Assembly: GCA_964574415.1 (NCBI GenBank)
Contig: CAZNNM010000005.1
Location: 130,132 to 194,131 of the forward strand
DNA: 64,000 nt
Direction: 5' to 3'
Source: an uncultured Rickettsiales bacterium
GTDB lineage: Bacteria > Pseudomonadota > Alphaproteobacteria > Rickettsiales > CAZNNM01
A program made the translations under genes and the position numbers. The notes under the pieces were generated by a model that saw nothing but the letters and a program-made list of their open reading frames with translations, was not told the origin of the DNA and searched no databases. Shown here one piece after another: positions 6,446-33,779 of this stretch (position 1 is the stretch's first letter; every line of letters starts with the position of its first letter).

Positions 6446-7612
6446 ATGAGCACACAAAAGCACTTTCCCTCTGAATTAACAGAACGTTATACCGAAATAT
6501 TTACCTCACAAACTCAAGATACTCTGGTTTTTTGTGATCCTGGCATTGATGATGCATTAATGCTGGCACAGGTTCTCTCTTCTAAGAAATTGAATGTTCT
6601 TGGTATTGTACCTGGCGCTGGAAATGTTTCTCTTGATAAAACAATCGCTAACACATTGCGTATTGTAGAACTAACAGAACGTACAGATGTTAAAGTATAC
6701 CCAGGATGTAAAGCACCTATCGGCCAAAGCACTGAAAATATGCTTAATGGCGAACAAGTATACGGTGAAGATGGGCTTGGCGGCATTCCATTCAAAGCAC
6801 TTACCACACAAGCACAAACACAAGATGGTGTTGAATTTGCTGCAAATGCTATTCTTACAGCTAAAAAACCTATTACTCTTATTTCCACAGGCGGTTTGAC
6901 CGACGTATATCTCACTCTAGCAAAAATCAAAGAAATCAACCCAGCAGCATTAAAAAATATTGCTGGAATTTCTATTATGGGCGGTGTGTTTGATTATAAA
7001 GCAAATGCCAATGCACCATTACATGTAAATCCAGCAGACCGCGTTGCAGAATTTAATATGATCTTTGATCCTATTGCAACTAAAGGCGTATTCGATATTG
7101 CAGCAGAAGCACATATTACCATCTTGCTTGCTCCATTAGACCTAACCCACACTACCCTCTACCGCAAAGAAAAAGAAACCAAAGCACTTGGCGAAGTTGG
7201 CAACCCTGTTGCTACCGTCATGGCAGATTTGATGATGCAAGTGCCAGTATGGTATGAGGCACGTTTTGGTTTAGCAGATGGCGGTATGCAGCCTGCACAT
7301 GATGTGAATGCAAGCATGGCAATTCTGCACCCCGAGCTTTATACTGGCAGATGGGCCAATGTACGCTCTGTTCTGGATGGGACAGAAGTAGGCAAAACAT
7401 TTGAAGTTGATGGCGGCCCACAAAATGTGTGCATTCTGAATATTCCAGCAGAACGCAACGCAGGCTTCTTTACAGCATTTAATACTGATATGAAAGCATT
7501 TGATGCGCTCAAAGAAAAATCACATCTGCCTTCAGACCATAAGCCCAAAACTGCTCAAGACATTCTTACTCTTGGCAAAGGCAATACTTCTAGCTTTGCT
7601 CAAACACTGTAA
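6446..7612 (+). CDS. inosine-uridine-preferring nucleoside hydrolase (IUNH) family protein, variant motif, C-terminal extension
   Basis: LVFCDPGIDDALML corresponds to DxDxxxDD with the first Asp replaced by Phe. Also GEDGLGG, AEFNMIFDP and QPAHDVN, which align with RihA-type catalytic segments. Confidence 0.8.
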   Translation: MSTQKHFPSELTERYTEIFTSQTQDTLVFCDPGIDDALMLAQVLSSKKLNVLGIVPGAGNVSLDKTIANTLRIVELTERTDVKVYPGCKAPIGQSTENMLNGEQVYGEDGLGGIPFKALTTQAQTQDGVEFAANAILTAKKPITLISTGGLTDVYLTLAKIKEINPAALKNIAGISIMGGVFDYKANANAPLHVNPADRVAEFNMIFDPIATKGVFDIAAEAHITILLAPLDLTHTTLYRKEKETKALGEVGNPVATVMADLMMQVPVWYEARFGLADGGMQPAHDVNASMAILHPELYTGRWANVRSVLDGTEVGKTFEVDGGPQNVCILNIPAERNAGFFTAFNTDMKAFDALKEKSHLPSDHKPKTAQDILTLGKGNTSSFAQTL

Positions 7613-7633
7613 TATTTTTAAAAGGATACTATT

Positions 7634-8767
7634 ATGTCAAGACAACATTATGATTTAGTCATCAGCCTCATTGAAGAAGCAAAACAAGCGTTTATTTCTG
7701 GTGAAGGCACAACACCTGTTGTAGGTGATGTTGAACTTTTTACAAAAGAGGTGGATGGCAAGATCTATAAATTCTTTGGTATTGCGAAAGATAAGCAAGC
7801 CACAACTGATTACACAGCAGTGCGTAGCCATATTCTTCAAGAAATGGGATTAGCACAAGAAACTAGGACATTGCAAATCATTGGCGACTCTGCGCAATAC
7901 AACCCTGAACAATCCAAATTCATGCAGAAGTATTTCAACGAGAAAATGCAAAAATCATCACATGATGATGAATTAGTGATCTATGGTTATACAAGCCGTT
8001 ATAAAGACAACTCATCTGAGAAAACAAAAGGCAGAACAGAAGTAAATGGCTTGGTGAACTACTGGGTTGACCAAAACCCAGAACAAGCTAAACGTGTGCT
8101 AGCAAACGTGGTTTGCTTCCATACACGCCAAGCACTGACAGAAAGTGGCAAAGTTATGTCTGGCTCTACCACCGATAAAGGCTGGGGCTGTGATACATCT
8201 GAACATGTGACCAACTTTTTCCTGGTATATGATACAAAAGGAAAAGGAGCTACATTTGGTGATGACACCATTTCTTCAGATGAATTGACCGATAAATGCT
8301 ATACCTACGAAGGTGGCATCCAATCTTTCCGTCAAGGTGGCTATATGGCAAAACGCGGTAAGGAGCTTAAAGGTGTTTCTGGCCTGCGTGGCGAAAAAAA
8401 TGTTGGCTGTTTTGTTCCGCAAGAAGATGCCTATAGAATATTCTTCTCAGCACCTGAATTCTTTGCTCTTCTGCAAGCGCGTACAGCTGCAAAAGGCTCT
8501 GAGTTAACCCCTGACGAGGTAACCACCATTCGTGATGAATATGTTGCAACAAACTACCAAGATGCACTTGCAGATAAATCACGCCGCGTATTAACAAACC
8601 CACATCGCGATGATGCTGCAACCAAAGATGGCTTATTCAAAGAAGGCTGGGCTGATTTGATGAAAGAGGAGGGCTATAAAGCTGTACAACAACACTTTAA
8701 AGGTAAAACCTTTGAAGAGTTAGTAGCTAAGACGGCGGCTAAAACATCAGCCACACAAAGCCTCTAA
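7634..8767 (+). CDS. hypothetical protein (orphan), co-transcribed with the nucleoside hydrolase
   Basis: 377-aa ORF starting 22 nt after the upstream stop, with an AAGGA Shine-Dalgarno and followed by an intrinsic terminator. No family recognised. There is a weak Rossmann/SLOG-like pattern (ELVIYGYTS ... KCYTYEGGIQSFRQGG). Confidence 0.7.
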   Translation: MSRQHYDLVISLIEEAKQAFISGEGTTPVVGDVELFTKEVDGKIYKFFGIAKDKQATTDYTAVRSHILQEMGLAQETRTLQIIGDSAQYNPEQSKFMQKYFNEKMQKSSHDDELVIYGYTSRYKDNSSEKTKGRTEVNGLVNYWVDQNPEQAKRVLANVVCFHTRQALTESGKVMSGSTTDKGWGCDTSEHVTNFFLVYDTKGKGATFGDDTISSDELTDKCYTYEGGIQSFRQGGYMAKRGKELKGVSGLRGEKNVGCFVPQEDAYRIFFSAPEFFALLQARTAAKGSELTPDEVTTIRDEYVATNYQDALADKSRRVLTNPHRDDAATKDGLFKEGWADLMKEEGYKAVQQHFKGKTFEELVAKTAAKTSATQSL

Positions 8768-8792
8768 TACTCTTTTCTCATTGATGTTAAGG

Positions 8793-8825
8793 AAGCGCTC
8801 AGAAATTTTTCTGAGCGCTTTTTTT
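8793..8825 (+). terminator. rho-independent terminator of the island operon
   Basis: aagcgctcag / ctgagcgctt 10-bp stem, 8-nt loop, followed by a T-run. Confidence 0.8.
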
Positions 8826-8840
8826 ACAGTATACATTCCT

Positions 8841-8870
8841 TCTTATCTTATCTTATCTTATCTTATCTTT
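8841..8870. repeat. pentanucleotide microsatellite (TCTTA)x5 plus degenerate units
   Basis: tctta repeated five times at 8841-8865, then tcttt, tctcc and tcttg. Confidence 0.9.
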
Positions 8871-8898
8871 TCTCCTCTTGCTCAACATACAAAAAATA

Positions 8899-9051
8899 CC
8901 CCTCAAACGCGTTATCCAACGTGAGCTGCAAAATAAACTGGCACAGAAGATTCTGGAGGGGAGTGTGAATGATGGGGATGTGGTGGAGGTGAGTGCGAAG
9001 GAGGCGGGATTGGTGATTGCGGTGAGGAGAACGACGGCGAAGGTGGCGTAA
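8899..9051 (+). pseudogene. orphaned clpB 3' end fragment (last 50 codons plus stop)
   Basis: Translates to [50 protein letters not shown], colinear with the ClpB C-terminus. There is no upstream ORF in frame. Confidence 0.85.
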
Positions 9052-9101
9052 ATTGTCATACACCGACTTGCAGGGGGTAGCATCTCACTCGCACTGAGAT
9101 G

Positions 9102-9494
9102 CTAGGCCTTGGCGCCTACTTTCCGTAACCAGTCACCCAATTGCTCTTCTGTCACTTCACCGGCTGCAAGCCTATAGAAGACAGCGTATTTTTCCTCTTG
9201 TGAAGCCTGTACAGTATAACCGTTTAGTCGTAAAAACAAACAGCACACCACAAATACAGTCCGTTTATTACCATCCATAAAAGGATGATTGCGTGCTATG
9301 CCATAGGCATAGGCAGCCGCGAGCGCCATTATATCAATACCCGCGCCGCCATAATAATAAGTATTCTTGGGCTTATTAAGTGCGGAATCTAATAAGCCTG
9401 CATCGCGCACACCATCTAAGCCACCATGTTCAGCAAGCTGTCTGCGGTGAATAGCAAGCACAACCTCATCAAGCACCCATATCGGTTCCTGCAT
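9102..9494 (-). CDS. doc: Doc (death-on-curing) family Fic-fold toxin
   Basis: The HPFMDGNKRT motif matches the Doc-type Fic motif HxFxDGNKR. The gene is 130 aa and lies 3 nt downstream of a small antitoxin gene. Confidence 0.85.
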   Translation of the reverse strand: MQEPIWVLDEVVLAIHRRQLAEHGGLDGVRDAGLLDSALNKPKNTYYYGGAGIDIMALAAAYAYGIARNHPFMDGNKRTVFVVCCLFLRLNGYTVQASQEEKYAVFYRLAAGEVTEEQLGDWLRKVGAKA

Positions 9495-9497
9495 GGT

Positions 9498-9722
9498 CTA
9501 TTCTGCCAACTTCTTCAATACATCACGATTATCATGCATAATCTGCTCTGCCATATCCATTTGTGATGCGAATTCAGGATTATAGGCTGTGAACTCTATA
9601 CCATTTGGAGTTTCCACAGCATATAACGCATCCCCCTTTTCAACACGCAATTTTGCAAGCACTTCTCTGGGTAAAATCACCCCTAAAGAATTACCAATCG
9701 CCGTCACTTTAATTAATGCCAT
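9498..9722 (-). CDS. AbrB/MazE/SpoVT-family antitoxin
   Basis: 74 aa. N-terminal IKVTAIGNSLGVILPREVLAKLRVEKGD is a looped-hinge-helix (SpoVT-AbrB) signature. Operon partner of doc. Confidence 0.8.
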   Translation of the reverse strand: MALIKVTAIGNSLGVILPREVLAKLRVEKGDALYAVETPNGIEFTAYNPEFASQMDMAEQIMHDNRDVLKKLAE

Positions 9723-9745
9723 AGCTTACCTCCACTTTATTTAAG

Positions 9746-9761
9746 TATAACATATGTTATA
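9746..9761. promoter_or_regulatory. perfect 16-bp palindrome, candidate TA operator
   Basis: tataacatatgttata lies 24 nt upstream of the antitoxin start codon. Confidence 0.5.
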
Positions 9762-9787
9762 ACAAAAGTAAAGCACTATATAACAAC

Positions 9788-9812
9788 AAAAAAGCGGCCA
9801 AAAAGCCGCTTT
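9788..9812 (-). terminator. rho-independent terminator downstream of mreC
   Basis: gcggc/gccgc stem with flanking A-run and T-run. On the minus strand the hairpin is followed by TTTTTT. Confidence 0.6.
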
Positions 9813-9838
9813 TCCACCCTTTTCCTGCATACAGGATC

Positions 9839-10654
9839 CTATTTCACAATACTCACAAACTCCAACCGGTTCCATTCCACAAACGGTTTCACGGTAATTT
9901 TATCCTTTTCAATCGTCTGAATCGTACCAATTGGCAGACCTGGAGGGAAGTAGCCACCGTCACCGGAGGTAATGACCACCTCGCCTAGCACCGTGGAGTT
10001 ATCGGTTGGGATATAGTGTAACTCTGGTGCATCAGTATTGCTACCGCCTAAGATACCACGATAACGTGATGTGCTGGTCATAATAGGGATCCGGGAGTTC
10101 AAGTCTGTCACCAGCAGGATACGGGCGCTATGTTCGCCCACTTCAATAATACGGCCCACTAAACCCACCGCATTCACCACCGCCTGGCCTTTTTTCACAC
10201 CATCGGTAGAACCTGCATCAATGCTCACCGAATGCAAATACGGGCTGCGGCTATCAGCCACAACACGAGCTGTAATATAGGATGTCTCTTGCGCACCTAC
10301 GAAATTGAGCAATTCGCGCAGATGGATATTCTCCAAATTAGCCTGCTGAGCAGCCAGCAATTGTTTGCGCAATTGGGTATTTTCAGAGCGTAACGCTGCA
10401 TTTTCATGACGGATATAGAAGATTTCATTGGTGGATTTGCCCATTTGGATCACCGAATGGATCGGGCGCGCCACCACATCCACCACGGGCATCACCGCAT
10501 CGACGATATTGTTGCGGATCGTATCAGTCACCATCGGATTCATACGTCCCGCCACAAGCAGCATCACCGATGCAATCAGCAACGCCACCGCCGAAAGGCG
10601 CTGCATTGTCAGCTTGAAAGGTATAGCAAGATGGAGGGCGCGATGTCTAGCCAT
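9839..10654 (-). CDS. mreC: rod shape-determining protein MreC
   Basis: N-terminal TM segment, coiled-coil LRSENTQLRKQLLAAQQ, then beta-rich domains (GLVGRIIEVGEHSARILLVTD). Lies downstream of mreB. Confidence 0.85.
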   Translation of the reverse strand: MARHRALHLAIPFKLTMQRLSAVALLIASVMLLVAGRMNPMVTDTIRNNIVDAVMPVVDVVARPIHSVIQMGKSTNEIFYIRHENAALRSENTQLRKQLLAAQQANLENIHLRELLNFVGAQETSYITARVVADSRSPYLHSVSIDAGSTDGVKKGQAVVNAVGLVGRIIEVGEHSARILLVTDLNSRIPIMTSTSRYRGILGGSNTDAPELHYIPTDNSTVLGEVVITSGDGGYFPPGLPIGTIQTIEKDKITVKPFVEWNRLEFVSIVK

Positions 10655-19758: not shown

Positions 19759-20280
19759 ATGAGTCTATGGCAGCAAGGTGACGTCTATATACGTTTGCTG
19801 ACACCTAAAATCGTTGCTGTTCTGCTGATCATACTCAGTGTTATTCCACTGCGTATTCCTGGGCTTGCGGAATTTATGCCGTTGTTTAACGTCATGATTA
19901 TTTATTACTGGTCAATCTATCGGCCAGAACTTTTTCCGAATTGGTTTGTCTTTGCCTTAGGTATTTTCCAAGATGCCCTTTATGGCACACCGCTCGGCAG
20001 CACCTCACTCATCAACCTCATCTCCCGCATGGCGATTATTTCGCAGCGTAAAATTTTCGTCCGCGAATCCTTCTTAGTCGTATGGAGCGGGTTTATTTTA
20101 TTCTGCCTGGTGATTAGCCTACTTAACTGGGCCATCTTCTCGTTATTCCGCGAACATTTCATGTCAATTCCGATGGTATTGATGCAATGGGTGTTATCGG
20201 TGGTGCTGTATAGCTGCGTACATGGCGTATTCAGTGGTATATTGATGATTCTTCCGGATAGGCAATCCCATGGCGCGTAA
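19759..20280 (+). CDS. mreD: rod shape-determining protein MreD
   Basis: 173 aa, polytopic. YYWSIYRPELFP...GIFQDALYGTPLG pattern. Lies immediately upstream of and overlapping mrdA. Confidence 0.75.
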   Translation: MSLWQQGDVYIRLLTPKIVAVLLIILSVIPLRIPGLAEFMPLFNVMIIYYWSIYRPELFPNWFVFALGIFQDALYGTPLGSTSLINLISRMAIISQRKIFVRESFLVVWSGFILFCLVISLLNWAIFSLFREHFMSIPMVLMQWVLSVVLYSCVHGVFSGILMILPDRQSHGA

Positions 20281-22168
20281 GGAACTTAAACGGGGCCGTA
20301 TCTTTGCCCGCCGCTCTTTTGTATTAGCAGGCCTCAAAGCCGCCATGATGACTGCCCTGGCAGGGCGTTTGTTTTATCTGCAAGTATCGCTCTCTGACCA
20401 ATATAAAACCATGTCAGATAGTAACCGCATCAAACTCTTCCTCATCCCGCCTGTACGCGGCATGATCGTAGACCGGTTCGGCCAGCCGCTGGCCACCAAT
20501 AAAATCCATTACCGGATTTTGCTTGATCCTACCGAAGCTAAAAATGCAGAAGCAACCTTCTTAAAGCTTTCCGATATTCTCAATATCCAAGCCGCCAAAA
20601 AAGAATTCCTCCTCGCCCGCATCCGCAAACACCAAGGCCGCCGCCCTATTTTGCTGCATGAACATCTCACCTGGGATGAAGTAGCGCTTGCAGAAGTCAA
20701 TACGCCTGACCTACCAGGCGTCTATGTTGAAGCCGGACAAATGCGCTATTACCCCAAAGCCGAAATCTGCTCCCATGCCATTGGCTATGTATCTGCCGTC
20801 TCCGAGCAAGAAGCCATCAAAGATGACCCACTACTCAACCATCCCGATTTCAAAATCGGCAAGAGCGGTGTAGAGAAAGCGTTTGAAGATGTGCTACGCG
20901 GCGAAGCCGGTGTGCGCCGGATGGAAGTAAACGCCCATGGTCTCACTGTACAAGAACTCTCCCGCATCAACAGCACACCCGGCAAAACCTTGCCGATTAC
21001 ACTTGATCTGCGCCTGCAAGAATTCGTCACCCAACGTCTTATCGATCATCGCAGCGCGACATCGGTTGTGCTTGATGCTTACACAGGCGGTGTCTTGGCC
21101 TATGGTTCCGTGCCTGCGTTTAATCCTAATAATTTTGTGGAAGGTATTTCATCTGCCTATTGGAGTACGCTTACCAAAAACCCAGATCTGCCCTTGGTTA
21201 ATAAACCCATTGCACAAATGTACCCACCTGGCTCAACCTTCAAACCGGTTGTAGCATTGGCGGCGCTAATGCAAGGCATTAACCCTGAAGACAGTGTATA
21301 CTGCCCAGGCTATTTCGATTTAGGCCGCCGCCGGGTGCGTTGCTGGCGTGAAGGCGGGCATGGTGTGGTGAATATGCGTGGTGCAATTATGCATTCATGC
21401 AATGTCTATTTCTTCCATATGGGACGCCGCATCGGCATTGACCCTATTTCTACTATGTCCAACCGCTTTGGCTTAGGCGTGCTTTCTGGCGTGGAGATTC
21501 CTGGCGAAAAAGCTGGCCTTATCCCTACCCCAAGCTGGAAAAAAACCCGTCATGGTATTGACTGGCAATTAGGGGACACGATTAACACCGCCATCGGCCA
21601 GGGTTTCGTGCTTTCCACAGCCATGCAGCTTGCCGTAATGGCTGCACGTATTGCCAGCCGTGGCAAAGTCATTATCCCGCATTTTGAACTCAGCCCAGAG
21701 AAAGAATTGTCACCGAGCTGGGAACAAATGGATATCCCACAGCGCTATTTCGATGTGGTCATTGACGGTATGCGCAATGTGATGAATACACCAGGAGGCA
21801 CAGCCTATGGCAGCCGCATCCTCAACCCACGCTGGGCCATGGCTGGGAAAACAGGGACAGCGCAAGTTATCTCCAAAAAACGCCTGGCAGGCGATTATGC
21901 CAGTGCAAAACTCTGGGAGAACCAGAACCATGGCCTCTTTATCGGCTTTGCACCGCTGGATAATCCACGTTATGCAATTTCCGTCATCGTTGACCATGGC
22001 GGTAGCGGCTCTGGTGCGGCCGCACCTATTGCACGTGATATCATGACCAAAGCGCAGGAACTGGAATCCGCACGTTATATCATGCCATCGCAACACCCAG
22101 CTTCGACCGATATACCTGGCATCAGTGTGGAAACCATTACCAAGAAAGAAGCGGAGCAAGCAGAATGA
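20270..22168 (+). CDS. mrdA: penicillin-binding protein 2 (elongasome transpeptidase)
   Basis: STFKP (SxxK), HSCNVYF (SxN) and KTGTAQ motifs, with an N-terminal TM anchor. Confidence 0.92.
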   Translation: MARKELKRGRIFARRSFVLAGLKAAMMTALAGRLFYLQVSLSDQYKTMSDSNRIKLFLIPPVRGMIVDRFGQPLATNKIHYRILLDPTEAKNAEATFLKLSDILNIQAAKKEFLLARIRKHQGRRPILLHEHLTWDEVALAEVNTPDLPGVYVEAGQMRYYPKAEICSHAIGYVSAVSEQEAIKDDPLLNHPDFKIGKSGVEKAFEDVLRGEAGVRRMEVNAHGLTVQELSRINSTPGKTLPITLDLRLQEFVTQRLIDHRSATSVVLDAYTGGVLAYGSVPAFNPNNFVEGISSAYWSTLTKNPDLPLVNKPIAQMYPPGSTFKPVVALAALMQGINPEDSVYCPGYFDLGRRRVRCWREGGHGVVNMRGAIMHSCNVYFFHMGRRIGIDPISTMSNRFGLGVLSGVEIPGEKAGLIPTPSWKKTRHGIDWQLGDTINTAIGQGFVLSTAMQLAVMAARIASRGKVIIPHFELSPEKELSPSWEQMDIPQRYFDVVIDGMRNVMNTPGGTAYGSRILNPRWAMAGKTGTAQVISKKRLAGDYASAKLWENQNHGLFIGFAPLDNPRYAISVIVDHGGSGSGAAAPIARDIMTKAQELESARYIMPSQHPASTDIPGISVETITKKEAEQAE

Positions 22169-23292
22169 GCTATAGAGACCGTTTTTCCCTGCGTAAAATT
22201 GGCGACCTGCATTGGGGGCTGATATTCCTGATCACTTGTGTATCCTGCATGGGCTTTGCCATTCTCTATTCCGCCGCACAAGGCAATTGGGAACCCTGGG
22301 CGCTGGCGCAGATCAAACGCTTTTTAGTCTTCTTCCCCATTATGATTGTGATTGCGCTGGTGGATATACGTTTCTGGCTGCGTTATTCCTATGTGTTCTA
22401 TGTCATTGCCCTACTCATGCTCATCGCCGTTGAAATCTCCGGCCATAGGGCGATGGGTGCTACACGCTGGATGCGTATCGGCCCGATCAATATCCAGCCT
22501 TCCGAAGTGATGAAAATCGCCCTTATCTTAGCGCTAGCCCGTTATTTCCACTTCCGTAGCGCAGAAGATGCACGGCGGATTATCTACCTTATCCCACCAC
22601 TCTGCATGATTTTCTTGCCGATATTGCTGATCTTAAAACAGCCAAACTTAGGAACTGCCATGATCTGCCTGCTTATCAGCGGTGCGATTTTCTTTGTGGC
22701 GGGGATCAGGCTATGGAAATTCGGTGTCGTCATTGGTGGCGCCCTTGCCTCAATTCCTATTGCCTGGCAATTTATGCATGAATACCAAAAGAAACGCGTT
22801 CTCACCTTCCTAGACCCAGAGCGCGATCCGCTGGGCGATGGCTATAACATCATCCAATCCAAAATCGCCATCGGCTCCGGCGGCATTACCGGCAAAGGCT
22901 TCCTACATGGCAGCCAAAGCCAGCTTAGCTTTCTGCCGGAACATCAAACCGACTTTATTTTCACCATGTTCGCCGAGGAATTCGGCCTGACGGGTGGCTT
23001 GACGCTCCTAGCGATCTTCACCCTCATGATCACCCTTGGCTATATCATCGCCCTGCGCTGCCATAACCATTACGGCCGCATCGTCGCCACTGGCATCACC
23101 ACTATGTTCTTCGTCCATATTTTCATTAATATTGGTATGAATATGGGGCTATTACCAGTAGTAGGAACACCATTACCCCTACTCTCTTATGGTGGCTCCA
23201 TCATGATGACCATGCTTATTGGCTTCGGCTTCCTCCTCAACTCCCATGTCCATCACCGGATGTATATGAATCGGGGGATTGAGGATGATTAG
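22165..23292 (+). CDS. rodA: SEDS-family peptidoglycan polymerase RodA
   Basis: FtsW/RodA/SpoVE signature: QPSEVMKIALILALA, FLPEHQTDFIF, LPVVGTPLPLLSYGGS. Confidence 0.92.
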   Translation: MSYRDRFSLRKIGDLHWGLIFLITCVSCMGFAILYSAAQGNWEPWALAQIKRFLVFFPIMIVIALVDIRFWLRYSYVFYVIALLMLIAVEISGHRAMGATRWMRIGPINIQPSEVMKIALILALARYFHFRSAEDARRIIYLIPPLCMIFLPILLILKQPNLGTAMICLLISGAIFFVAGIRLWKFGVVIGGALASIPIAWQFMHEYQKKRVLTFLDPERDPLGDGYNIIQSKIAIGSGGITGKGFLHGSQSQLSFLPEHQTDFIFTMFAEEFGLTGGLTLLAIFTLMITLGYIIALRCHNHYGRIVATGITTMFFVHIFINIGMNMGLLPVVGTPLPLLSYGGSIMMTMLIGFGFLLNSHVHHRMYMNRGIEDD

Positions 23293-26603: not shown

Positions 26604-26858
26604 TTATTCCGATTTATCAGATTCTTGCTTTGAATCGAACCCTAAAAGCGCCTCGATTAGGTCCTCATGCGAATCCGCATGGGAGGCCGCCAGGTTTTGC
26701 TCCAGAATCACATCATAGATTTCTTTACGCAAAACAGTGGAGGTGCGAGGGAAGGTAAAACCAAGCTTGACGGTTTTGCCTTTGATTTCCACAATGGTCA
26801 CTTCAATATTGTTATTAATAACAACAGTTTCACCGAGTTTCCGGGCTAAGTATAACAT
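26604..26858 (-). CDS. csrA: carbon storage regulator CsrA with a long acidic C-terminal tail
   Basis: MLYLARKLGETVVINNNIEVTIVEIKGKTVKLGFTFPRTSTVLRKEIY aligns with CsrA/RsmA. Confidence 0.85.
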   Translation of the reverse strand: MLYLARKLGETVVINNNIEVTIVEIKGKTVKLGFTFPRTSTVLRKEIYDVILEQNLAASHADSHEDLIEALLGFDSKQESDKSE

Positions 26859-27264: not shown

Positions 27265-27648
27265 ATGCAGCCTATGAATAATGCCTTAAAGAATTTACCG
27301 ATAAAAGTAAGCGAAGCTGACGAACAAGATGTGATGTCAGACATTCGTTACATTCGCAAATCCTGCTCATTGATCACTGATGCGCTGCAAAAGGGTTGTG
27401 ACGTATTACAAATGCCTAATGGCAATGTAGTGATCACTGAAATCCGCACTGTATCATTCCAATATGAGTGGAACGACTCTAAAGGTCGTTTTGAGAAAGC
27501 CAAATCTGGCAGCCGTCTCAAAAAATTGAGACGCCAACAATCAGAAACAGCGGTTACTGCTGCTCCTGTGCGTGAAGCTGTAGCTGTGAAAAAAGCAAAA
27601 GAGCCTGTAAAAGAAAAAACAGTTGCTCGTGTAAAAGAACCCGCATAA
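27265..27648 (+). CDS. hypothetical small protein with a basic Lys/Ala/Val-rich tail
   Basis: 127-aa ORF followed by a strong terminator. No family recognised. Confidence 0.5.
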   Translation: MQPMNNALKNLPIKVSEADEQDVMSDIRYIRKSCSLITDALQKGCDVLQMPNGNVVITEIRTVSFQYEWNDSKGRFEKAKSGSRLKKLRRQQSETAVTAAPVREAVAVKKAKEPVKEKTVARVKEPA

Positions 27649-27670: not shown

Positions 27671-27704
27671 AAAAAAGCACCGTGCCATTTGCCGGTGCTT
27701 TTTT
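27671..27704 (+). terminator. rho-independent terminator
   Basis: A-run, gcaccg/cggtgc stem extended by A-T pairs, then TTTTTT. Confidence 0.7.
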
Positions 27705-27845
27705 GCTATAAAACTGTGTGATACGATACCATGTTGGAGGGGAGCCGCATGGTAGAGTAGTCACCCCTATATCACATACCCGTAATTATTATTCCCACCC
27801 TGTTACTTTTAAAGCTTTCTTAACCCAAATCCCGTTAAAGTTAAG

Positions 27846-27962
27846 CTAGGTTGTGTCGACATGCATCTTCTATGCGAGCGAGAGGGGTGGATTTTCGAGC
27901 ATCGAAGCACAGAAAATTCGCCTTTTGCAGCCGCATAGAAGATGCATGTCGACACAACCTAG
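27846..27962. repeat. perfect 31-bp inverted repeat separated by 55 nt
   Basis: ctaggttgtgtcgacatgcatcttctatgcg (27846-27876) and its exact reverse complement (27932-27962). No other copy seen in the window. Confidence 0.9.
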
Positions 27963-28012: not shown

Positions 28013-28660
28013 ATGACCACAGAACTACAATTGGCTGAACTTTTAAATGCACGCTTTTGCCATGATCTGGCAGGCCCGATTGGTGCTGTGAATAACGGCA
28101 TTGAGTTTCTGGCTGAAGATAATTTCGACATGAAAGAACAAGCCATGGCCCTGGCTGAGGCAAGCGCCAGAGAAGCTGTAGCCCGCCTGCAATTTTTCCG
28201 TCAAGCCTATGGCGCCGTGCCAGAGCAAGGCGAGGCGAATATTGAACATATCAAAGAACTGACCAACAACCTCATGCGTTTTGGCAAAGTAACCCTGGAT
28301 TGGCCTGATCAACATACCAATGCTGCTGGCATCTCCATCGGCCACCGTATGGGCAAGTTGATTATGAATATGGTGATCCTCTGCTCCTCCATGCTAATCC
28401 ATGGCGGCACGGTCTCTATACGCTTAGAAAAACTGCCCGAAGGCCAGAATGTCACCATCACAGGCATGGGCAAAGATATCAAATGCGAGCCCGATTATCT
28501 GGTGATCTTACGCGGAAGCAATGATGCACCGGCTATGGATAAGCGTAATGTGCAGGTATTCTTCACCGCGCGTTTAATCCAACAGCTTGGCGTAAACCTA
28601 TCTGTTAAACAAAATGATAATTCCGTCAGCTTTATGCTAGAGCGCATAAAAGCACTATGA
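28013..28660 (+). CDS. ChpT-like histidine phosphotransferase family protein
   Basis: N-terminal LAELLNARFCHDLAGPIGAVNNGIEFLAED matches the ChpT H-box (CHDLxxPxGAxxNGxELL), and the size is about 215 aa. Lies 24 nt upstream of cheA. Confidence 0.7.
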   Translation: MTTELQLAELLNARFCHDLAGPIGAVNNGIEFLAEDNFDMKEQAMALAEASAREAVARLQFFRQAYGAVPEQGEANIEHIKELTNNLMRFGKVTLDWPDQHTNAAGISIGHRMGKLIMNMVILCSSMLIHGGTVSIRLEKLPEGQNVTITGMGKDIKCEPDYLVILRGSNDAPAMDKRNVQVFFTARLIQQLGVNLSVKQNDNSVSFMLERIKAL

Positions 28661-28684
28661 TGGAGCCACGAAAATGAGGGGATC

Positions 28685-31426
28685 ATGGATGAGTTATTAA
28701 CCGATTTTCTAACTGAAACCGTTGAGGGACTCACCGTACTCGATTCCGAGCTTGTTCGCCTAGAGCAAGAACCAAACGACCCTACCATTCTTGGTAATAT
28801 CTTCCGTGTGATGCACACAATTAAAGGAACCTGTGGTTTCTTAGGCCTGCCACGCTTAGAGGCAGTAGCCCATGCTGGTGAGAATGTGCTGGGTAAAATC
28901 CGCGACGGCAAACTTAATGTCAGCCCCCATACTATTACCCTGATTCTTGAAGCCATCGACTGTATCAAAACCATTCTCAGCTACCTCGAAAACGAGGGCA
29001 AAGAGCCAGCGGGTGATGATGGCGAGCTGATTCAGCGCCTCAATGCCTGCGCAGAAGGCGAAGAGCCTGCACCTGTCGAAGCAGAGCCTATCATGGCAGC
29101 CCCAGCACCAGAGGCTATGGAAGGCGAATTACCCGCCGAACAATCCGCCGAAGAAGTAGCAGAAAGCCTGGCCATTTTTGATGAAATCCTGCATCAGAAT
29201 GATGATGTTACTCCAGAGCCTGCACCTGTTGAGGCCATCGCACCGGAGCCAGAGCCTCTCCCAGAGTCAGAACATCACGAATCCGCTCCGGCTCCTATGC
29301 CTGCGCCTATTGCCCATGCAACACCCTCCAGCGCAATTGTTGACCCCATCATGGAAGGCCTCAAAGCCAAAGCAGCTGAGCCTGGCAATAAAACCAGTCC
29401 GGTGAGCAACCAGACCATTCGTGTGAACCTGGAAGTACTCGAAAACCTGATGCAGATGGTGAGCGAATTAGTACTTACCCGTAACCAGCTCTTCCAAGTG
29501 CTGCGCACTAATCACAATGTAGATTTTGCCGCTCCATTACAACGCCTGAACCACATCACCTCTGAACTGCAAGAACGTGTGATGAAAACACGGATGCAGC
29601 CGATCAGCAATGCCTGGACACCTTTCCCGCGTTTGATCCGCGACCTTGCTCTCGAACTTAATAAAAAAATCGAACTCCGCCAAATCGGTGGTGACACAGA
29701 ACTTGACCGCCAACTCCTCGAAATGATCAAAGACCCGCTCACCCACATGGTGCGCAACTCTGCCGATCACGGCTTAGAAGGCCCTGAAGAGCGACGGAAT
29801 ACGGGCAAATCTGAAACGGGTACGGTTACGCTCAAAGCATATCACGAAGGCGGCTATATCATCGTTGAAATTTCTGATGACGGCCGTGGCTTGAACCCGC
29901 AAAGAATCATGCAAAAAGCCATCACCAATGGCTTAGCTACCGAACAAGAACTTGCCCAAATGAGCGAGCAGCAAATCTTGCAATTCATCTTCCGTGCAGG
30001 TTTCTCAACAGCGGAGAAAGTCACATCTGTATCCGGCCGCGGTGTTGGTATGGATGTGGTGAAAAACAATATTGAGAAAATCAGCGGCACGATTGAGCTG
30101 ATTTCCAAAGTCGGCAAAGGCTCCACCTTCCGCATCAAAATCCCTCTCACGCTGGCGATTATGCAGGTGCTGATTGTGGAAGCTGGTCAAAAACGTTTTG
30201 CTATTCCGCAAATCAACATCACCGAATTAGTCCGCTGTGGCAAAAACGGTGCGCATCAAATTGAATATATCAATGACCGCCCAATCCTGCGCTTACGTGG
30301 CAAATTATTACCACTGATCGCCCTGGTCGATGTGATGAAAATCAACCCCGACACGCCAAGCGACCCGAAATTTATCGCCGTATGTGAAGTAGGCGGATTC
30401 CAATATGGCGTCCTGGTTGACCGTGTATTTGATACCGAAGAGATTGTGGTCAAACCAACCTCCCCTGTCCTCAAACACCTGGATATTTATTCCGGCAGCA
30501 CCATCTTGGGTGATGGTAGCGTGATTATGATCCTCGATCCAAACGGCATGGCGCGTTGCACGGGTGAGGTCAATATGACCAATGATGCCAACAAAACCGC
30601 AACGCAGCATATTTCTGCTGATGATATCCCTATCCGCTTCCTGATTTTCAACGCAGGCGGCACAACACCAAAAGCCTTACCACTTGATCTGGTCTCCCGC
30701 TTAGAAGAGATTGATGTCAGCAAAATCGAATTCTCCGGCGATCAACGCGTCATCCAATACCGCAATAACCTCATGTACCTCACCGCCGTTGACCCAGATT
30801 ACATCTGGCCGGAAAGCGGTATGCAGCATGTTGTCGTATTCGTTGATAACAACAAGGTGATGGGTCTAGCAGTCAAAGAGATTGTCGATATCGTCGAACA
30901 CTCCATGAGCATCTCCAGCAAGCTTGAAAAGCCAGGTTTCTTAGGTAGCGTAGTGATTGAAAACCGCACCTGCGATTTGGTGGATATTGGCTATTTCTTC
31001 AAACAAACCTTCACCAGCACCGCTCTCGCCGATGACAGCATCAACAACGCACCGCGCGTATTATTTGTTGATGATAGCCCGTTCTTCCGCAAATTCATTC
31101 CACCCACATTGCAAGAAGCCGGCTATCGCGTCACCACCTTTGATAACGCCCGCGATGCACTCACTTATATGGAAAACGATAACCGCTTCAACGCCATCAT
31201 CACCGATATGAACATGCCTGGCATGGATGGTATGGAACTGGCACGGCAATGCCAGGATAATCAGCGTCTATCGCATATTCCTATTGTCGTATTATCGTCC
31301 CAAAACGCCGAAGAAATACAGCAATTCAGACGGGATGTAAGCGCAATCCAATCGCTTAAAGCCTATGTCTCAAAAACCAACCATACCCAATTGCTTGATA
31401 CTATCGCTGGGCTTATGGCGGAATAA
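28685..31426 (+). CDS. cheA: hybrid chemotaxis histidine kinase CheA (Hpt, dimerisation, HATPase, 2 CheW-like domains, C-terminal receiver)
   Basis: Hpt MHTIKGTCGFLG. HATPase DDGRGL and GRGVGMDVV. Two CheW-like segments (FAIPQINITELV..., IRFLIFNAGG...). REC RVLFVDDSPFF...ITDMNMPGMDG. Confidence 0.92.
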   Translation: MDELLTDFLTETVEGLTVLDSELVRLEQEPNDPTILGNIFRVMHTIKGTCGFLGLPRLEAVAHAGENVLGKIRDGKLNVSPHTITLILEAIDCIKTILSYLENEGKEPAGDDGELIQRLNACAEGEEPAPVEAEPIMAAPAPEAMEGELPAEQSAEEVAESLAIFDEILHQNDDVTPEPAPVEAIAPEPEPLPESEHHESAPAPMPAPIAHATPSSAIVDPIMEGLKAKAAEPGNKTSPVSNQTIRVNLEVLENLMQMVSELVLTRNQLFQVLRTNHNVDFAAPLQRLNHITSELQERVMKTRMQPISNAWTPFPRLIRDLALELNKKIELRQIGGDTELDRQLLEMIKDPLTHMVRNSADHGLEGPEERRNTGKSETGTVTLKAYHEGGYIIVEISDDGRGLNPQRIMQKAITNGLATEQELAQMSEQQILQFIFRAGFSTAEKVTSVSGRGVGMDVVKNNIEKISGTIELISKVGKGSTFRIKIPLTLAIMQVLIVEAGQKRFAIPQINITELVRCGKNGAHQIEYINDRPILRLRGKLLPLIALVDVMKINPDTPSDPKFIAVCEVGGFQYGVLVDRVFDTEEIVVKPTSPVLKHLDIYSGSTILGDGSVIMILDPNGMARCTGEVNMTNDANKTATQHISADDIPIRFLIFNAGGTTPKALPLDLVSRLEEIDVSKIEFSGDQRVIQYRNNLMYLTAVDPDYIWPESGMQHVVVFVDNNKVMGLAVKEIVDIVEHSMSISSKLEKPGFLGSVVIENRTCDLVDIGYFFKQTFTSTALADDSINNAPRVLFVDDSPFFRKFIPPTLQEAGYRVTTFDNARDALTYMENDNRFNAIITDMNMPGMDGMELARQCQDNQRLSHIPIVVLSSQNAEEIQQFRRDVSAIQSLKAYVSKTNHTQLLDTIAGLMAE

Positions 31427-31437
31427 CGGAGTTTTCT

Positions 31438-31932
31438 ATGTCGCATGATCTTGTACCCCATCAAGCCACCCATCTCTCAGACCCTCAAAACGCTGGGAAG
31501 ATGACGGAATTTATTACCATGTCGATCGATGGCCAATTATTTGGTATCTCAGTCTATCCGGTACAAGACGTGCTAGCAGCACAGAATGTTTCCTCCATTC
31601 CACTGGCTCCTCCTGAAGTGGCAGGCTCACTGAATTTACGTGGCCGGATTGTAACCGCTATTGATGTGCGCGTCCGCCTAGGGTTACCTCCACTGGATGA
31701 CCGCACCAACCGCAAAAGCATCGTTGTAGAGCATAAAGAAGAACTTTACAGCCTGTTAGTAGACAGCGTCGGTGATGTGCTAAACCTGCCGGTTAATAAG
31801 CTCAACCACACACCTGAGAACGTTTCCAACGCCTGGCAGGAAGTGGCTCTGGGTGTCTACCCACTTGATTCTAAATTACTGATTATACTTGATGTTGGAA
31901 AGTTGCTGCGCTTTGGTCCGAAGCTCGCATAG
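31438..31932 (+). CDS. cheW: chemotaxis coupling protein CheW
   Basis: 164 aa. FITMSIDGQLFGISVYPVQDVL ... NLRGRIVTAIDVR. Confidence 0.9.
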   Translation: MSHDLVPHQATHLSDPQNAGKMTEFITMSIDGQLFGISVYPVQDVLAAQNVSSIPLAPPEVAGSLNLRGRIVTAIDVRVRLGLPPLDDRTNRKSIVVEHKEELYSLLVDSVGDVLNLPVNKLNHTPENVSNAWQEVALGVYPLDSKLLIILDVGKLLRFGPKLA

Positions 31933-31944
31933 ATAGAGGCACCT

Positions 31945-32319
31945 ATGACACAAACCTGCCTAATCGTCGATGACTCCAAAGTAGTGCGCAAATTTGCACG
32001 CCGCATCATGGAAGAATTGAAATTTGATATCCGCGAAGCCGAGAATGGGGTAGAGGCGCTTAATGCCTGTAAAGAATTCTTCCCCGATGTGATTTTGCTG
32101 GATTGGAATATGCCCGTGATGGATGGACTCACCTGTTTAAAAGAACTCCGCGCTTTGCCTGGCTCTGAAAAAGTGCAGGTGATTTTCTGCACGACAGAGA
32201 ATGATATCAGCCGCATCCAAGATGCCGTCATCGCTGGCGCAAACGAATATATTATGAAACCCTTTGATACCGAAATCGTCAAAAGCAAACTGATCCAAAC
32301 AGGTTTGCTGCATGAGTAA
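31945..32319 (+). CDS. cheY: chemotaxis response regulator CheY
   Basis: Stand-alone REC domain: CLIVDDS, LLDWNMPVMDG, YIMKPF. Confidence 0.9.
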   Translation: MTQTCLIVDDSKVVRKFARRIMEELKFDIREAENGVEALNACKEFFPDVILLDWNMPVMDGLTCLKELRALPGSEKVQVIFCTTENDISRIQDAVIAGANEYIMKPFDTEIVKSKLIQTGLLHE

Positions 32320-32938
32320 CCCCACCCCTCCTCTCACATTGCGCGCGCTGCCAATGCTTTTTATGCCCAAAGTATTGGCTATAGGCTGCTCTACAGGCGG
32401 CCCACAAGCCGTTGTGTCGTTTTTAAAGGAAATCGACAAACGCCTTATGCATATCCCTATTTTCATCACCCAGCATATGCCACCCACACTCACCACACTG
32501 TTTGCCGATAATCTCCGCAAAGTCAGCAACCGCCCATGTGCTGAAGCCATAGATGGCGAAATCGCTAAACCTGGCCATATTTACCTGGCCCCAGGTGATT
32601 TCCACATGATTTGTGAAAAGAACGACAAAGACATCATCGTCCATTTAAGCAAAGCCCCACCGGAAAATTTTTGCCGCCCAGCGGTAGACCCGATGCTGCG
32701 CAGCCTTGCGCCTATTTACGGCAAACAGCTCCTCACCCTTATCCTCACCGGTATGGGCAAAGACGGGTTAGAGGGCGCCAAGGAGGTGTGCAACCATGGC
32801 GGAGTCGTTATCGCACAAGATGAAGCCAGTAGCGTCGTATGGGGTATGCCAGGTGCTGTAGCAACCGAAGGCATATGCAGCGCCGTATTGCCACTGAGTG
32901 AAATTGCAACCTATGTCAGCAGGATGTTCGGCGAATGA
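32312..32938 (+). CDS. cheB: chemotaxis methylesterase CheB, catalytic domain only (no receiver)
   Basis: AIGCSTGGPQAV, LTGMGKDG and VIAQDEASSVVWGMP. 208 aa, so no N-terminal REC domain. Confidence 0.85.
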   Translation: MSNPTPPLTLRALPMLFMPKVLAIGCSTGGPQAVVSFLKEIDKRLMHIPIFITQHMPPTLTTLFADNLRKVSNRPCAEAIDGEIAKPGHIYLAPGDFHMICEKNDKDIIVHLSKAPPENFCRPAVDPMLRSLAPIYGKQLLTLILTGMGKDGLEGAKEVCNHGGVVIAQDEASSVVWGMPGAVATEGICSAVLPLSEIATYVSRMFGE

Positions 32939-33744
32939 CTCTTTCTCCACAAGACATAGGTTTTCTCATCAATCTCGTCAAAACCCGTTCGGGGATTAGC
33001 TTGACGGAAGATAAACTCTATTTATTTGAATCACGCTTACTGCCCGTGGCCAAACAACACGGCATGAACGATATGCCCTCGCTCATTCAAAAACTGCGCG
33101 CTATGCCACCTGAAAAAATGCTCGTGGATGTCACCGAAGCGATGACCACCAATGAGTCTTTCTTCTTCCGTGATAATAAGCCATTTGATTACTTGCGCCA
33201 AACCGTCCTGCCTACTATCGCAAAACGCTCCCCTGGCGGCTCCTGCCGCATCTGGAGCGCCGCCTGCTCTACCGGACAAGAACCCTATTCCATTGCCATG
33301 TCCATCCTGGAAGAAACCGTTAAAGCCCCAGTCAATGCCTCTATCCTGGCCACTGACCTTGCCAATCATGTGCTTGAAAAGGCCAAAAGCGGTATCTACT
33401 CCCAATTTGAAGTACAACGCGGCGTGCCAATTACTTTACTGCTCAAATACTTCACCCAACAAGACACCCAATGGAAAATCAAAGATAATATCCGCCAGAT
33501 GGTCTCCTTTGATACCTGCAACCTGATGAATGACTTCAGCCATTTAGGCAAATTCGACATCATCTTCTGCCGCAACGTGCTGATCTATTTCGACGCCGAA
33601 ACCAAATCCAAAGTGTTGCAAAAAATGCAAAACTTACTCCATCCTGAGGGCATACTCTTCCTCGGCGGCTCCGAGAGCGTGTTTAACTTGAATACGAAGT
33701 TTAAAGCGATTGAGAACTGGCCAGGAACGTATCGGTTGGAATAA
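32935..33744 (+). CDS. cheR: chemotaxis methyltransferase CheR
   Basis: MTTNESFFFRD, RIWSAACSTGQEPYSIAM, IFCRNVLIYF. Confidence 0.9.
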   Translation: MTLSPQDIGFLINLVKTRSGISLTEDKLYLFESRLLPVAKQHGMNDMPSLIQKLRAMPPEKMLVDVTEAMTTNESFFFRDNKPFDYLRQTVLPTIAKRSPGGSCRIWSAACSTGQEPYSIAMSILEETVKAPVNASILATDLANHVLEKAKSGIYSQFEVQRGVPITLLLKYFTQQDTQWKIKDNIRQMVSFDTCNLMNDFSHLGKFDIIFCRNVLIYFDAETKSKVLQKMQNLLHPEGILFLGGSESVFNLNTKFKAIENWPGTYRLE

Positions 33745-33779
33745 AAAGGGCCACGAGAACCCTCGTGACCCTTCTTTTA
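33744..33779. terminator. hairpin between convergent cheR and groEL, probable bidirectional terminator
   Basis: aagggccacgag / ctcgtgaccctt stem with one mismatch, an A-run before and ttctttt after. Confidence 0.55.

Follow-up and report, generated by a model that had tools for sequence, protein, structure and literature searches.

In a 64,000-nucleotide (nt) stretch of contig CAZNNM010000005.1 from an uncultured Rickettsiales bacterium, referred to here as the window, a gene for a 215-amino-acid (aa) histidine phosphotransferase of the ChpT family (chpT, 28013-28660, + strand) lies directly upstream of a chemotaxis (che) operon whose first gene, cheA (28685-31426, + strand), encodes a hybrid of a kinase and a C-terminal receiver domain. 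An earlier note on this DNA had read the arrangement as a possible four-step phosphorelay within chemotaxis, passing from the CheA histidine through the receiver and the ChpT-like protein to a response regulator. The sequence features that the note quoted lie at the coordinates it gave, the second CheW-like domain of CheA being the least certain of them. We find that the chpT-che layout is old and conserved and is no sign of a new relay within chemotaxis; both proteins are of known families, and the operon corresponds to Che1 of Azospirillum rather than being a new system. The reading that we hold to be probable is that a canonical ChpT, acting between CckA and CtrA, sits in an ancestral motility cluster and forms one transcription unit with the che genes, probably under the control of CtrA, with the CheA receiver serving as an internal sink or modulator.

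A ChpT-family phosphotransferase and its lineage

The 215-aa protein, which begins MTTELQ-LAELLNARFCHDLAGPIGAVNNGIEFLAED, is a full-length ChpT-family histidine phosphotransferase, as the earlier note had recognised. It matches the Pfam profile PF10090 (HPTransfase) over positions 2-122 of 123 with 72.5 bits (cut-off 22.9), and by sequence it finds the solved ChpT structures of Brucella (4qpj, E 1e-26) and Caulobacter (4fmt, E 3e-14). The phosphorylatable residue is His17 in CHDLAGPIGA, which in ARFCHDLAGPIGA aligns with the CHD histidine of both of these proteins. In an alignment of 40 homologues, H17 is at least 90% conserved, the one noted exception being an N-terminally truncated sequence, and the CHD histidine is kept in every homologue whose N-terminus is present; the GPIGAxNNGxEF segment is also conserved across ChpT homologues. 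An AlphaFold model based on the same 40 homologues (predicted local distance difference test score, pLDDT, 95.2) combines a DHp-like helical hairpin with a CA-like alpha/beta domain and superposes on 4qpj, 4qpk, 4fmt and 4fpp at template modelling (TM) scores of 0.84-0.90 (0.87/0.90 against 4qpj_B, 0.85/0.88 against 4fmt_A), while the next group of structure matches, genuine histidine kinases, reaches TM 0.6 at most. No HATPase_c match was obtained with Pfam at E ≤0.01, and direct reading of the sequence revealed no DxGxG or GxGxG (G1, G2) box; judged from its sequence, the ATP-binding domain is degenerate and predicted to be without kinase activity.

The window protein thus shares full-length homology, fold, CHD histidine and lack of HATPase_c with the ChpT proteins of Caulobacter (CC_3470; 4fmt/4fpp) and Brucella (4qpj/4qpk), whereas it is only 23-31% identical to them. 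The two NCBIfam ChpT equivalog models, NF046018 and NF046025, align with it end to end at 139.3 and 128.7 bits, below their cut-offs of 240 and 225. Because these models are lineage-specific (Brucella/Rhizobium-type and Caulobacter-type), missing the cut-offs argues against membership of those two lineages and not against being ChpT. Nor does the window protein resemble the che-linked ChpT of Azospirillum (26-30% identity) more than the unlinked ChpT of Sinorhizobium (30%). A hidden Markov model (HMM) of the 40 homologues, run against all six-frame open reading frames (ORFs), found no second PF10090/ChpT gene in the 64-kb window.

In a neighbour-joining tree of 88 sequences, che-linked, ctrA-adjacent and unlinked ChpTs, together with those encoded beside a short CheA-like gene (see below), interleave thoroughly as a single ChpT lineage, and the Brucella ChpT, whose partner in the 4qpj complex is CtrA, falls between two che-linked sequences. 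A che-specific ChpT paralogue was rejected on this interleaving. Relatives were taken from a scan of one genome per species; of the 360 that it returned, among which the source genome of the window does not appear, the best 80 were analysed with their flanks; each of these 80 comes from a different assembly, and no genome is represented twice. Neither ChpT nor CtrA was found on the Azospirillum chromosomes in a published survey (Tomasch et al. 2021, PMC8116508, supplement), and both lie on plasmid pAB510d in Azospirillum sp. B510, so that the che-linked gene appears to be the sole ChpT of this strain; a plasmid also carries the ChpT match of A. brasilense Sp7. According to that supplement, Rhodospirillum centenum has its ChpT orthologue (RC1_1759) 7 kb from ctrA (RC1_1752) and Rhodospirillum rubrum has its own (Rru_A0520) 5.7 kb from ctrA (Rru_A0525), in tables for which Magnetospirillum AMB-1 (amb0327) is the order's reference (PMC8116508). 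As far as sequence comparison can tell, the window protein is most likely a canonical ChpT orthologue of this same lineage, with no che-specific paralogue involved. The CtrA pathway of AMB-1 is said to have been studied by Greene et al. in 2012.

Gene order of chpT, che and ctrA in related genomes

The best 80 loci encode ChpT proteins 35-50% identical to that of the window, and the metagenome-assembled genomes of the nearest relatives in the species-genome scan are labelled Rickettsiales, Alphaproteobacteria or Azospirillum. An F5-type cheA lies directly downstream of chpT at 55 of the 80 loci (52 full, three cut by a contig end). At seven others its place is taken by a gene for a CheA-like protein of about 540 aa, with P1 and CheW-like domains and without kinase or receiver, which is followed by cheW; at a further seven, ctrA lies directly downstream of chpT in convergent orientation, 114-231 nt away, with no che genes. 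Nine loci have other arrangements and two are too short to judge. Because it recurs in most related genomes, the chpT-cheA adjacency is not due to chance. The earlier note had proposed profiling how often PF10090-type genes neighbour genes for CheA-receiver hybrids, and the profile bears the linkage out from both sides: when loci were sampled from cheA, a ChpT homologue was present upstream in three of three long contigs, frameshifted in two long-read assemblies. Gaps between chpT and cheA range from 20 to 482 nt in the relatives (median 110 nt) and are 40 nt or less in four other GTDB loci.

Beyond the che genes, the recurring neighbour is ctrA, the gene for the established target of ChpT. 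Convergent ctrA follows cheR in 26 of the 37 F5-type loci that have enough sequence 3' of cheR to be assessed, encoding proteins that share 75-86% identity with CtrA as annotated in Azospirillum sp. B510, and ctrA is present at the chpT locus in 42 of the 80 genomes, directly adjacent in seven of them. In this respect the loci of the relatives fit a ChpT working in the CckA-ChpT-CtrA/CpdR pathway. The annotated record of pAB510d gives the full layout, running from a divergent DUF3553 gene through a histidine phosphotransferase family protein and CheA (933 aa) to cheW, cheY, cheB, cheR, three small genes, convergent CtrA and fliI. The same layout was found in a 4.36-Mb genome and a 455-kb contig, and a contig labelled 'Xanthobacteraceae' carries che-ctrA-fliI and is cut upstream of cheA. 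B510 and the window both have a ChpT-family gene directly upstream of cheA. They differ in that ctrA-fliI lies downstream in B510 whereas ctrA is not adjacent in the window, and in the chpT-cheA gap, which is 24 nt in the window and about 410 nt, with a small opposite-strand ORF in between, in B510. Neither ctrA nor cckA was found among the ORFs checked in the 64-kb window.

Several loci depart from this layout. The ctrA-adjacent class without a che operon comprises L012, L013, L023, L043, L045, L068 and L069, and because chpT and ctrA adjoin there without che genes, the che operon appears to be an insertable or removable block between the two. The short CheA-like class (L007, L008, L011, L032, L041, L046 and L052; inspected in L007, 5127-6749) has cheW and then convergent ctrA after the gene, and no cheY, cheB or cheR; its product recalls CheA3 of Rhodobacter sphaeroides and is a CheA module that is either degenerate or split. 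In L019 (653-2629) chpT is followed by opposite-strand cheR and cheB, so that the che operon converges on chpT in a rearranged variant of the cassette. In the long-read metagenome assemblies L091 (5367-5944 and 6387-9121) and L092 (4580-5169 and 6202-8431), chpT and cheA are split over two frames, which could be due to assembly indels or mark genuine pseudogenes.

These arrangements bear on what holds chpT beside cheA. In a dedicated relay, the phosphotransferase gene would be expected to come and go together with the gene for the hybrid kinase. Instead, chpT stands next to ctrA without che genes in seven loci and beside a CheA-like gene without kinase or receiver in seven, so that the receiver does not hold chpT in place there. 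The earlier note had also named chpT genes unlinked to che operons in other genomes as an argument against its proposal. This argument applies in part: chpT occurs without a che operon in seven genomes, and linkage stands in 55 of 80.

That proposal would make the window protein a ChpT-like paralogue dedicated to chemotaxis, the histidine phosphotransfer (HPt) protein of a four-step relay to CheY or another che regulator, independent of CckA and CtrA. The genes are indeed co-oriented and tightly spaced, the protein scores under the ChpT equivalog cut-offs, and no ctrA lies in the window, all of which such a component would explain. The tree, however, contains no separate che-linked clade, ctrA occurs at the same locus in relatives (26 of the 37 assessable), no genome appears twice among the best 80 loci, a second ChpT is not reported on Azospirillum chromosomes, and chpT persists where the che operon is missing. 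In addition, CheA P1 reportedly serves CheY directly in F5 systems, a finding attributed to Kennedy et al. in 2022. A ChpT dedicated to the che operon is thus not what the comparison reveals, and we judge it highly improbable. That chpT tracks ctrA, and outlives both the che operon and the loss of kinase and receiver, weighs against a dedicated che relay.

The F5-class CheA and its receiver

The 913-aa CheA contains, by Pfam, a P1/Hpt domain (residues 3-92, with His44), a P3 H-kinase_dim domain (242-302), a P4 HATPase_c domain (350-489), a CheW-like domain (494-623) and a Response_reg receiver (792-887). The Hpt, dimerisation, HATPase_c and CheW-like domains all score above the Pfam cut-offs, and the receiver matches PF00072 with 64.9 bits. 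Where P2 would be expected lies the Pro/Glu/Ala-rich linker described in the earlier note (residues 113-236, 54% Pro+Glu+Ala compared with 22% for the whole CheA), and residues 106-238 gave no Pfam match, to P2 or otherwise, even at E up to 10. Between this CheW-like domain and the receiver, residues about 650-781 probably form another, divergent domain of the same type. The CheW profile aligns with residues 652-767 over positions 2-129 of 138 at 17.9 bits (E 0.0024), below the cut-off of 23.5, and an hhalign profile-profile comparison returned a weak, out-of-register match (probability 2.7%). In the AlphaFold model this region folds into another beta domain of 11 strands with a helix after it, and with the strand pattern of the first domain; a fold search with the whole model does not separate the two. 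The second CheW-like domain of CheA.V proteins has been described as a separate, strongly divergent class, 'Class 5' (bioRxiv 10.1101/2022.05.07.491035). Of what the earlier note had said of the CheA, the second of the two tandem CheW-like domains is the weakest claim.

The earlier note had called this CheA unusual. The features on which it based this are present, the second CheW-like domain probably so, but together they constitute the known F5-class, or CheA.V, architecture, a class that we assigned to the window CheA by architecture and by homology to the CheA proteins of Azospirillum and Magnetospirillum. At least 3,053 database proteins match its W1-W2-receiver region at E ≤1e-10, among them CheA of Magnetospirillum gryphiswaldense. 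A survey of CheA architectures (PMC10542144) places A. caulinodans (Azorhizobium) CheA, A. brasilense CheA1 and R. centenum CheA1 in class F5, and reports a receiver in about 35% of CheA homologues and no P2 in more than half. The same three proteins are the studied examples of CheA.V, in which the receiver is functionally important (10.1101/2022.05.07.491035), by a mechanism that is unclear (10.1101/2022.05.07.491035; PMC10542144). The window CheA agrees with that of the Azospirillum Che1 operon in its missing P2, its C-terminal receiver and, probably, its pair of CheW-like domains. It also has the CheA.V architecture of R. centenum CheA1, an organism whose ChpT and CtrA genes are known here by coordinates only, 7 kb apart. 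The window CheA does not have the additional membrane domain found at the N-terminus of A. brasilense CheA1.

The receiver retains the acidic pair, the acceptor Asp (in DMNMPGMDG), the Ser/Thr and the Lys, residues that are conserved in 41 homologues; conservation among these sequences is 95% or more for the acceptor Asp and the Lys, while the first acidic position is either Asp or Glu. Among solved structures, the receiver comes closest to a Vibrio CheY. Compared by eye, the alpha-1 segment of the receiver (DDSPFFRKF) looks more like the one in the operon's CheY (DDSKVVRKF) than the one in CtrA, a likeness too weak to decide the choice of a partner. Among the matches listed, the receiver scores better against models of hybrid-kinase, CckA and CpdR receivers than against any CheY model.

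This combination invites the view that canonical ChpT is a shared hub, which besides serving CckA exchanges phosphoryl groups with the F5 CheA receiver, so that they would flow from CheA His to receiver Asp to ChpT His to CtrA Asp, or in reverse. Chemoreceptor activity would then feed CtrA~P and hence the expression of flagellar and chemotaxis genes. The classic layout of a phosphorelay pairs a kinase-receiver hybrid with a neighbouring HPt gene, a pairing that ORFs and Pfam domains confirm here as the earlier note had it, and the adjacency recurs in 55 of 80 species genomes and in all three loci sampled from cheA, with a gap of 24 nt in the window and of 40 nt or less in four other GTDB loci. 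The catalytic residues of the receiver are conserved in the 41 homologues, its best-scoring models among those listed belong to hybrid kinases that donate to HPt domains, to CpdR and to CckA, and the literature holds the receiver of F5 CheA to be important. Against this, chpT stays by ctrA without che genes (seven loci) and beside CheA-like genes without kinase or receiver (seven loci), alpha-1 looks CheY-like rather than CtrA-like, the best structural match is a CheY, and the literature searched yielded no paper linking ChpT with Che1 or CheA. We regard a shared hub as rather unlikely. The related claim, that the conserved pairing of chpT with F5-type cheA reflects phosphoryl exchange between the CheA receiver and ChpT, whereby array activity tunes CtrA~P or CckA/ChpT tunes CheA, is in our estimate unlikely.

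As in LuxQ-LuxU-LuxO, Sln1-Ypd1-Ssk1 and CckA-ChpT-CtrA, a kinase with a C-terminal receiver stands next to a stand-alone histidine phosphotransferase gene. In classical hybrid-kinase relays, however, the HPt tracks the hybrid kinase, whereas here it tracks ctrA and survives the loss of kinase and receiver; and the window CheA, unlike the kinases of those relays, already has an HPt domain of its own (P1) and a cognate CheY. Helicobacter CheAY2, Myxococcus FrzE and the W2-Rec module of A. caulinodans CheA, hybrids in which the receiver serves as a phosphate sink or internal regulator, have the same C-terminal CheY-like receiver with all catalytic residues kept, and to our knowledge none of these systems has been described with a ChpT-type gene in its operon.

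Downstream of cheA, all on the + strand, lie cheW (31438-31932; 164 aa; PF01584, 95 bits), cheY (31945-32319; 124 aa; PF00072, 100.7 bits, its best NCBIfam matches being CheY models), cheB (32312-32938; 208 aa, overlapping cheY by 8 nt) and cheR (32935-33744; 269 aa, with CheR_N and CheR domains, overlapping cheB by 4 nt). The order cheA-cheW-cheY-cheB-cheR is that of the Azospirillum Che1 operon. CheB of the window differs from that of Che1 in consisting of the methylesterase domain only, without the N-terminal receiver domain. CheB proteins looked up in relatives are of the receiver-CheB type (375-387 aa), and a few relatives, such as L021 and L031, also seem to be without the CheB receiver.

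The upstream region and the place of chpT in signalling

The chpT gene ends with TGA at 28658-28660 and cheA starts with ATG at 28685, leaving exactly the 24 nt that the earlier note had counted (TGGAGCCACGAAAATGAGGGGATC), which contain a GAGGGG ribosome-binding site. No terminator-like hairpin was found between the two genes. Such structures flank the unit instead: a hairpin with a T-run at 27682-27705 (+ strand; GTGCCATTTGCCGGTGC then TTTTTTGC), after a DUF2671 gene, marks its 5' boundary, and at 33746-33767, where cheR and groEL converge, both strands have terminator-like hairpins that mark the 3' boundary of the operon.

Between the 5' boundary and chpT lies a CtrA-box-like site, TTAAAGCTTTCTTAAC (TTAA-N7-TTAAC; 27809-27824, + strand), 204 nt upstream of chpT. 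Matches to TTAA-N7-TTAA number three in the 64-kb window, compared with 1.4 expected by chance. In L003, the closest relative (56% protein identity), the 16-mer recurs unchanged at -67, and apart from this 16-mer the upstream intergenic DNA of the two does not align. Within 400 nt upstream of chpT, TTAA-N7-TTAA was found at seven of 85 loci counted, against about 1.9 expected (Poisson p about 0.003), so that the enrichment is real but mainly confined to the sub-clade of the window; as a general feature of the loci a CtrA box was rejected, the perfect motif being present in only these seven. What separates the box from chpT in the window is a perfect inverted repeat of 31 bp (CTAGGTTGTGTCGACATGCATCTTCTATGCG), whose arms at 27846-27876 and 27932-27962 are 55 nt apart and which accounts for the longer distance between box and gene. 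No other copy occurs in the window, and L003, whose box is 137 nt nearer to the start codon, does not have the repeat; it therefore looks like a small palindromic insertion, and probably is an inserted palindromic element in the promoter region, which would also explain why the upstream regions align poorly.

The adjacency might still be a historical accident, a neutral leftover of ancestral gene order with no regulatory or biochemical meaning here. The loss of ctrA from the locus in the window lineage, the nine of 80 loci with other arrangements and intergenic gaps that vary from 20 to 482 nt are what neutral drift of gene order would produce. It would be harder to reconcile with an order retained across proteins only 35-50% identical, with a gap of just 24 nt and no terminator in the window, and with a CtrA-box-like 16-mer shared with L003 though the remaining intergenic DNA does not align. 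We consider a mere leftover quite improbable.

The reading that we favour joins a canonical ChpT to a motility cluster of old standing. ChpT would take phosphoryl groups from the receiver of CckA and hand them to CtrA and, in organisms that have it, to CpdR. In Rhodospirillales-like alphaproteobacteria the ancestral CtrA/motility cluster would have run from chpT through the che operon to convergent ctrA and then fliI, and in the window the chpT-che locus would have lost its ctrA neighbour. A promoter region with the CtrA-box-like site probably drives chpT and the che genes as one transcript, and we infer that CtrA controls this promoter; the phosphodonor of CtrA would thereby be co-expressed with the chemotaxis machinery that CtrA switches on. 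As in other CheA-receiver hybrids, the receiver most likely accepts phosphoryl groups from P1 and so acts as an internal sink or modulator, and CheY would provide the motor output. In one respect this ChpT stands apart from the canonical ones: its gene heads a che operon, with the partners CckA and CtrA not visible in the window. Caulobacter chpT is not known to lie next to che genes.

Several observations weigh against this reading. Because the window holds neither ctrA nor cckA, the CckA-ChpT-CtrA context is drawn from relatives and not from this genome, and the protein falls under both NCBIfam equivalog cut-offs (139.3 against 240, 128.7 against 225). The median chpT-cheA gap of 110 nt in relatives means that co-transcription of the two genes is not general, and the CtrA-box enrichment is modest (seven of 85 loci). 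Among the matches listed, the CheA receiver scores better against hybrid-kinase, CckA and CpdR models than against CheY models, and the 24-nt coupling and the adjacency in 55 of 80 genomes would also be predicted by a functional partnership of the CheA receiver with ChpT.

Further upstream, the DUF2671 gene (27265-27648, + strand) immediately precedes the chpT-che operon and belongs to a family seen mostly in Rickettsiales, a hint at the affiliation of the organism, and a CsrA homologue is encoded at 26604-26858 (- strand; TIGR00202, 69.7 bits, just under the cut-off of 70.1). In L072 and L077, genes for PBP2 and RodA (about 6960-9890) end some 115 nt before chpT. The corresponding pair in the window lies at 20270-23292, 4.7 kb upstream of chpT, separated from it by a DsbA-like gene, a citrate synthase gene, an ORF of unknown function, csrA and the DUF2671 gene.

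To find a divergent ChpT orthologue and a che operon of class F5 in an uncultured alphaproteobacterium is in itself routine annotation. Slightly less routine is the cassette of chpT, che(F5) and convergent ctrA, found in dozens of species-level genomes and in Azospirillum sp. B510 and consistent with the published coordinates for R. centenum and R. rubrum. Our literature search found no paper on ChpT together with Che1 or on chpT-che-ctrA synteny, so that the cassette may be under-reported. Published ortholog scans have found chpT hard to identify or missing in some lineages, and the cassette gives it a recognisable genomic address in lineages where such scans struggled. The cassette also fits the idea that motility control is the ancestral job of the CtrA pathway. 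If phosphoryl exchange between the CheA receiver and ChpT were true, it would give a function to the W2-receiver module of F5 CheA and would link behavioural signalling to the master regulator of the alphaproteobacterial cell cycle and motility.

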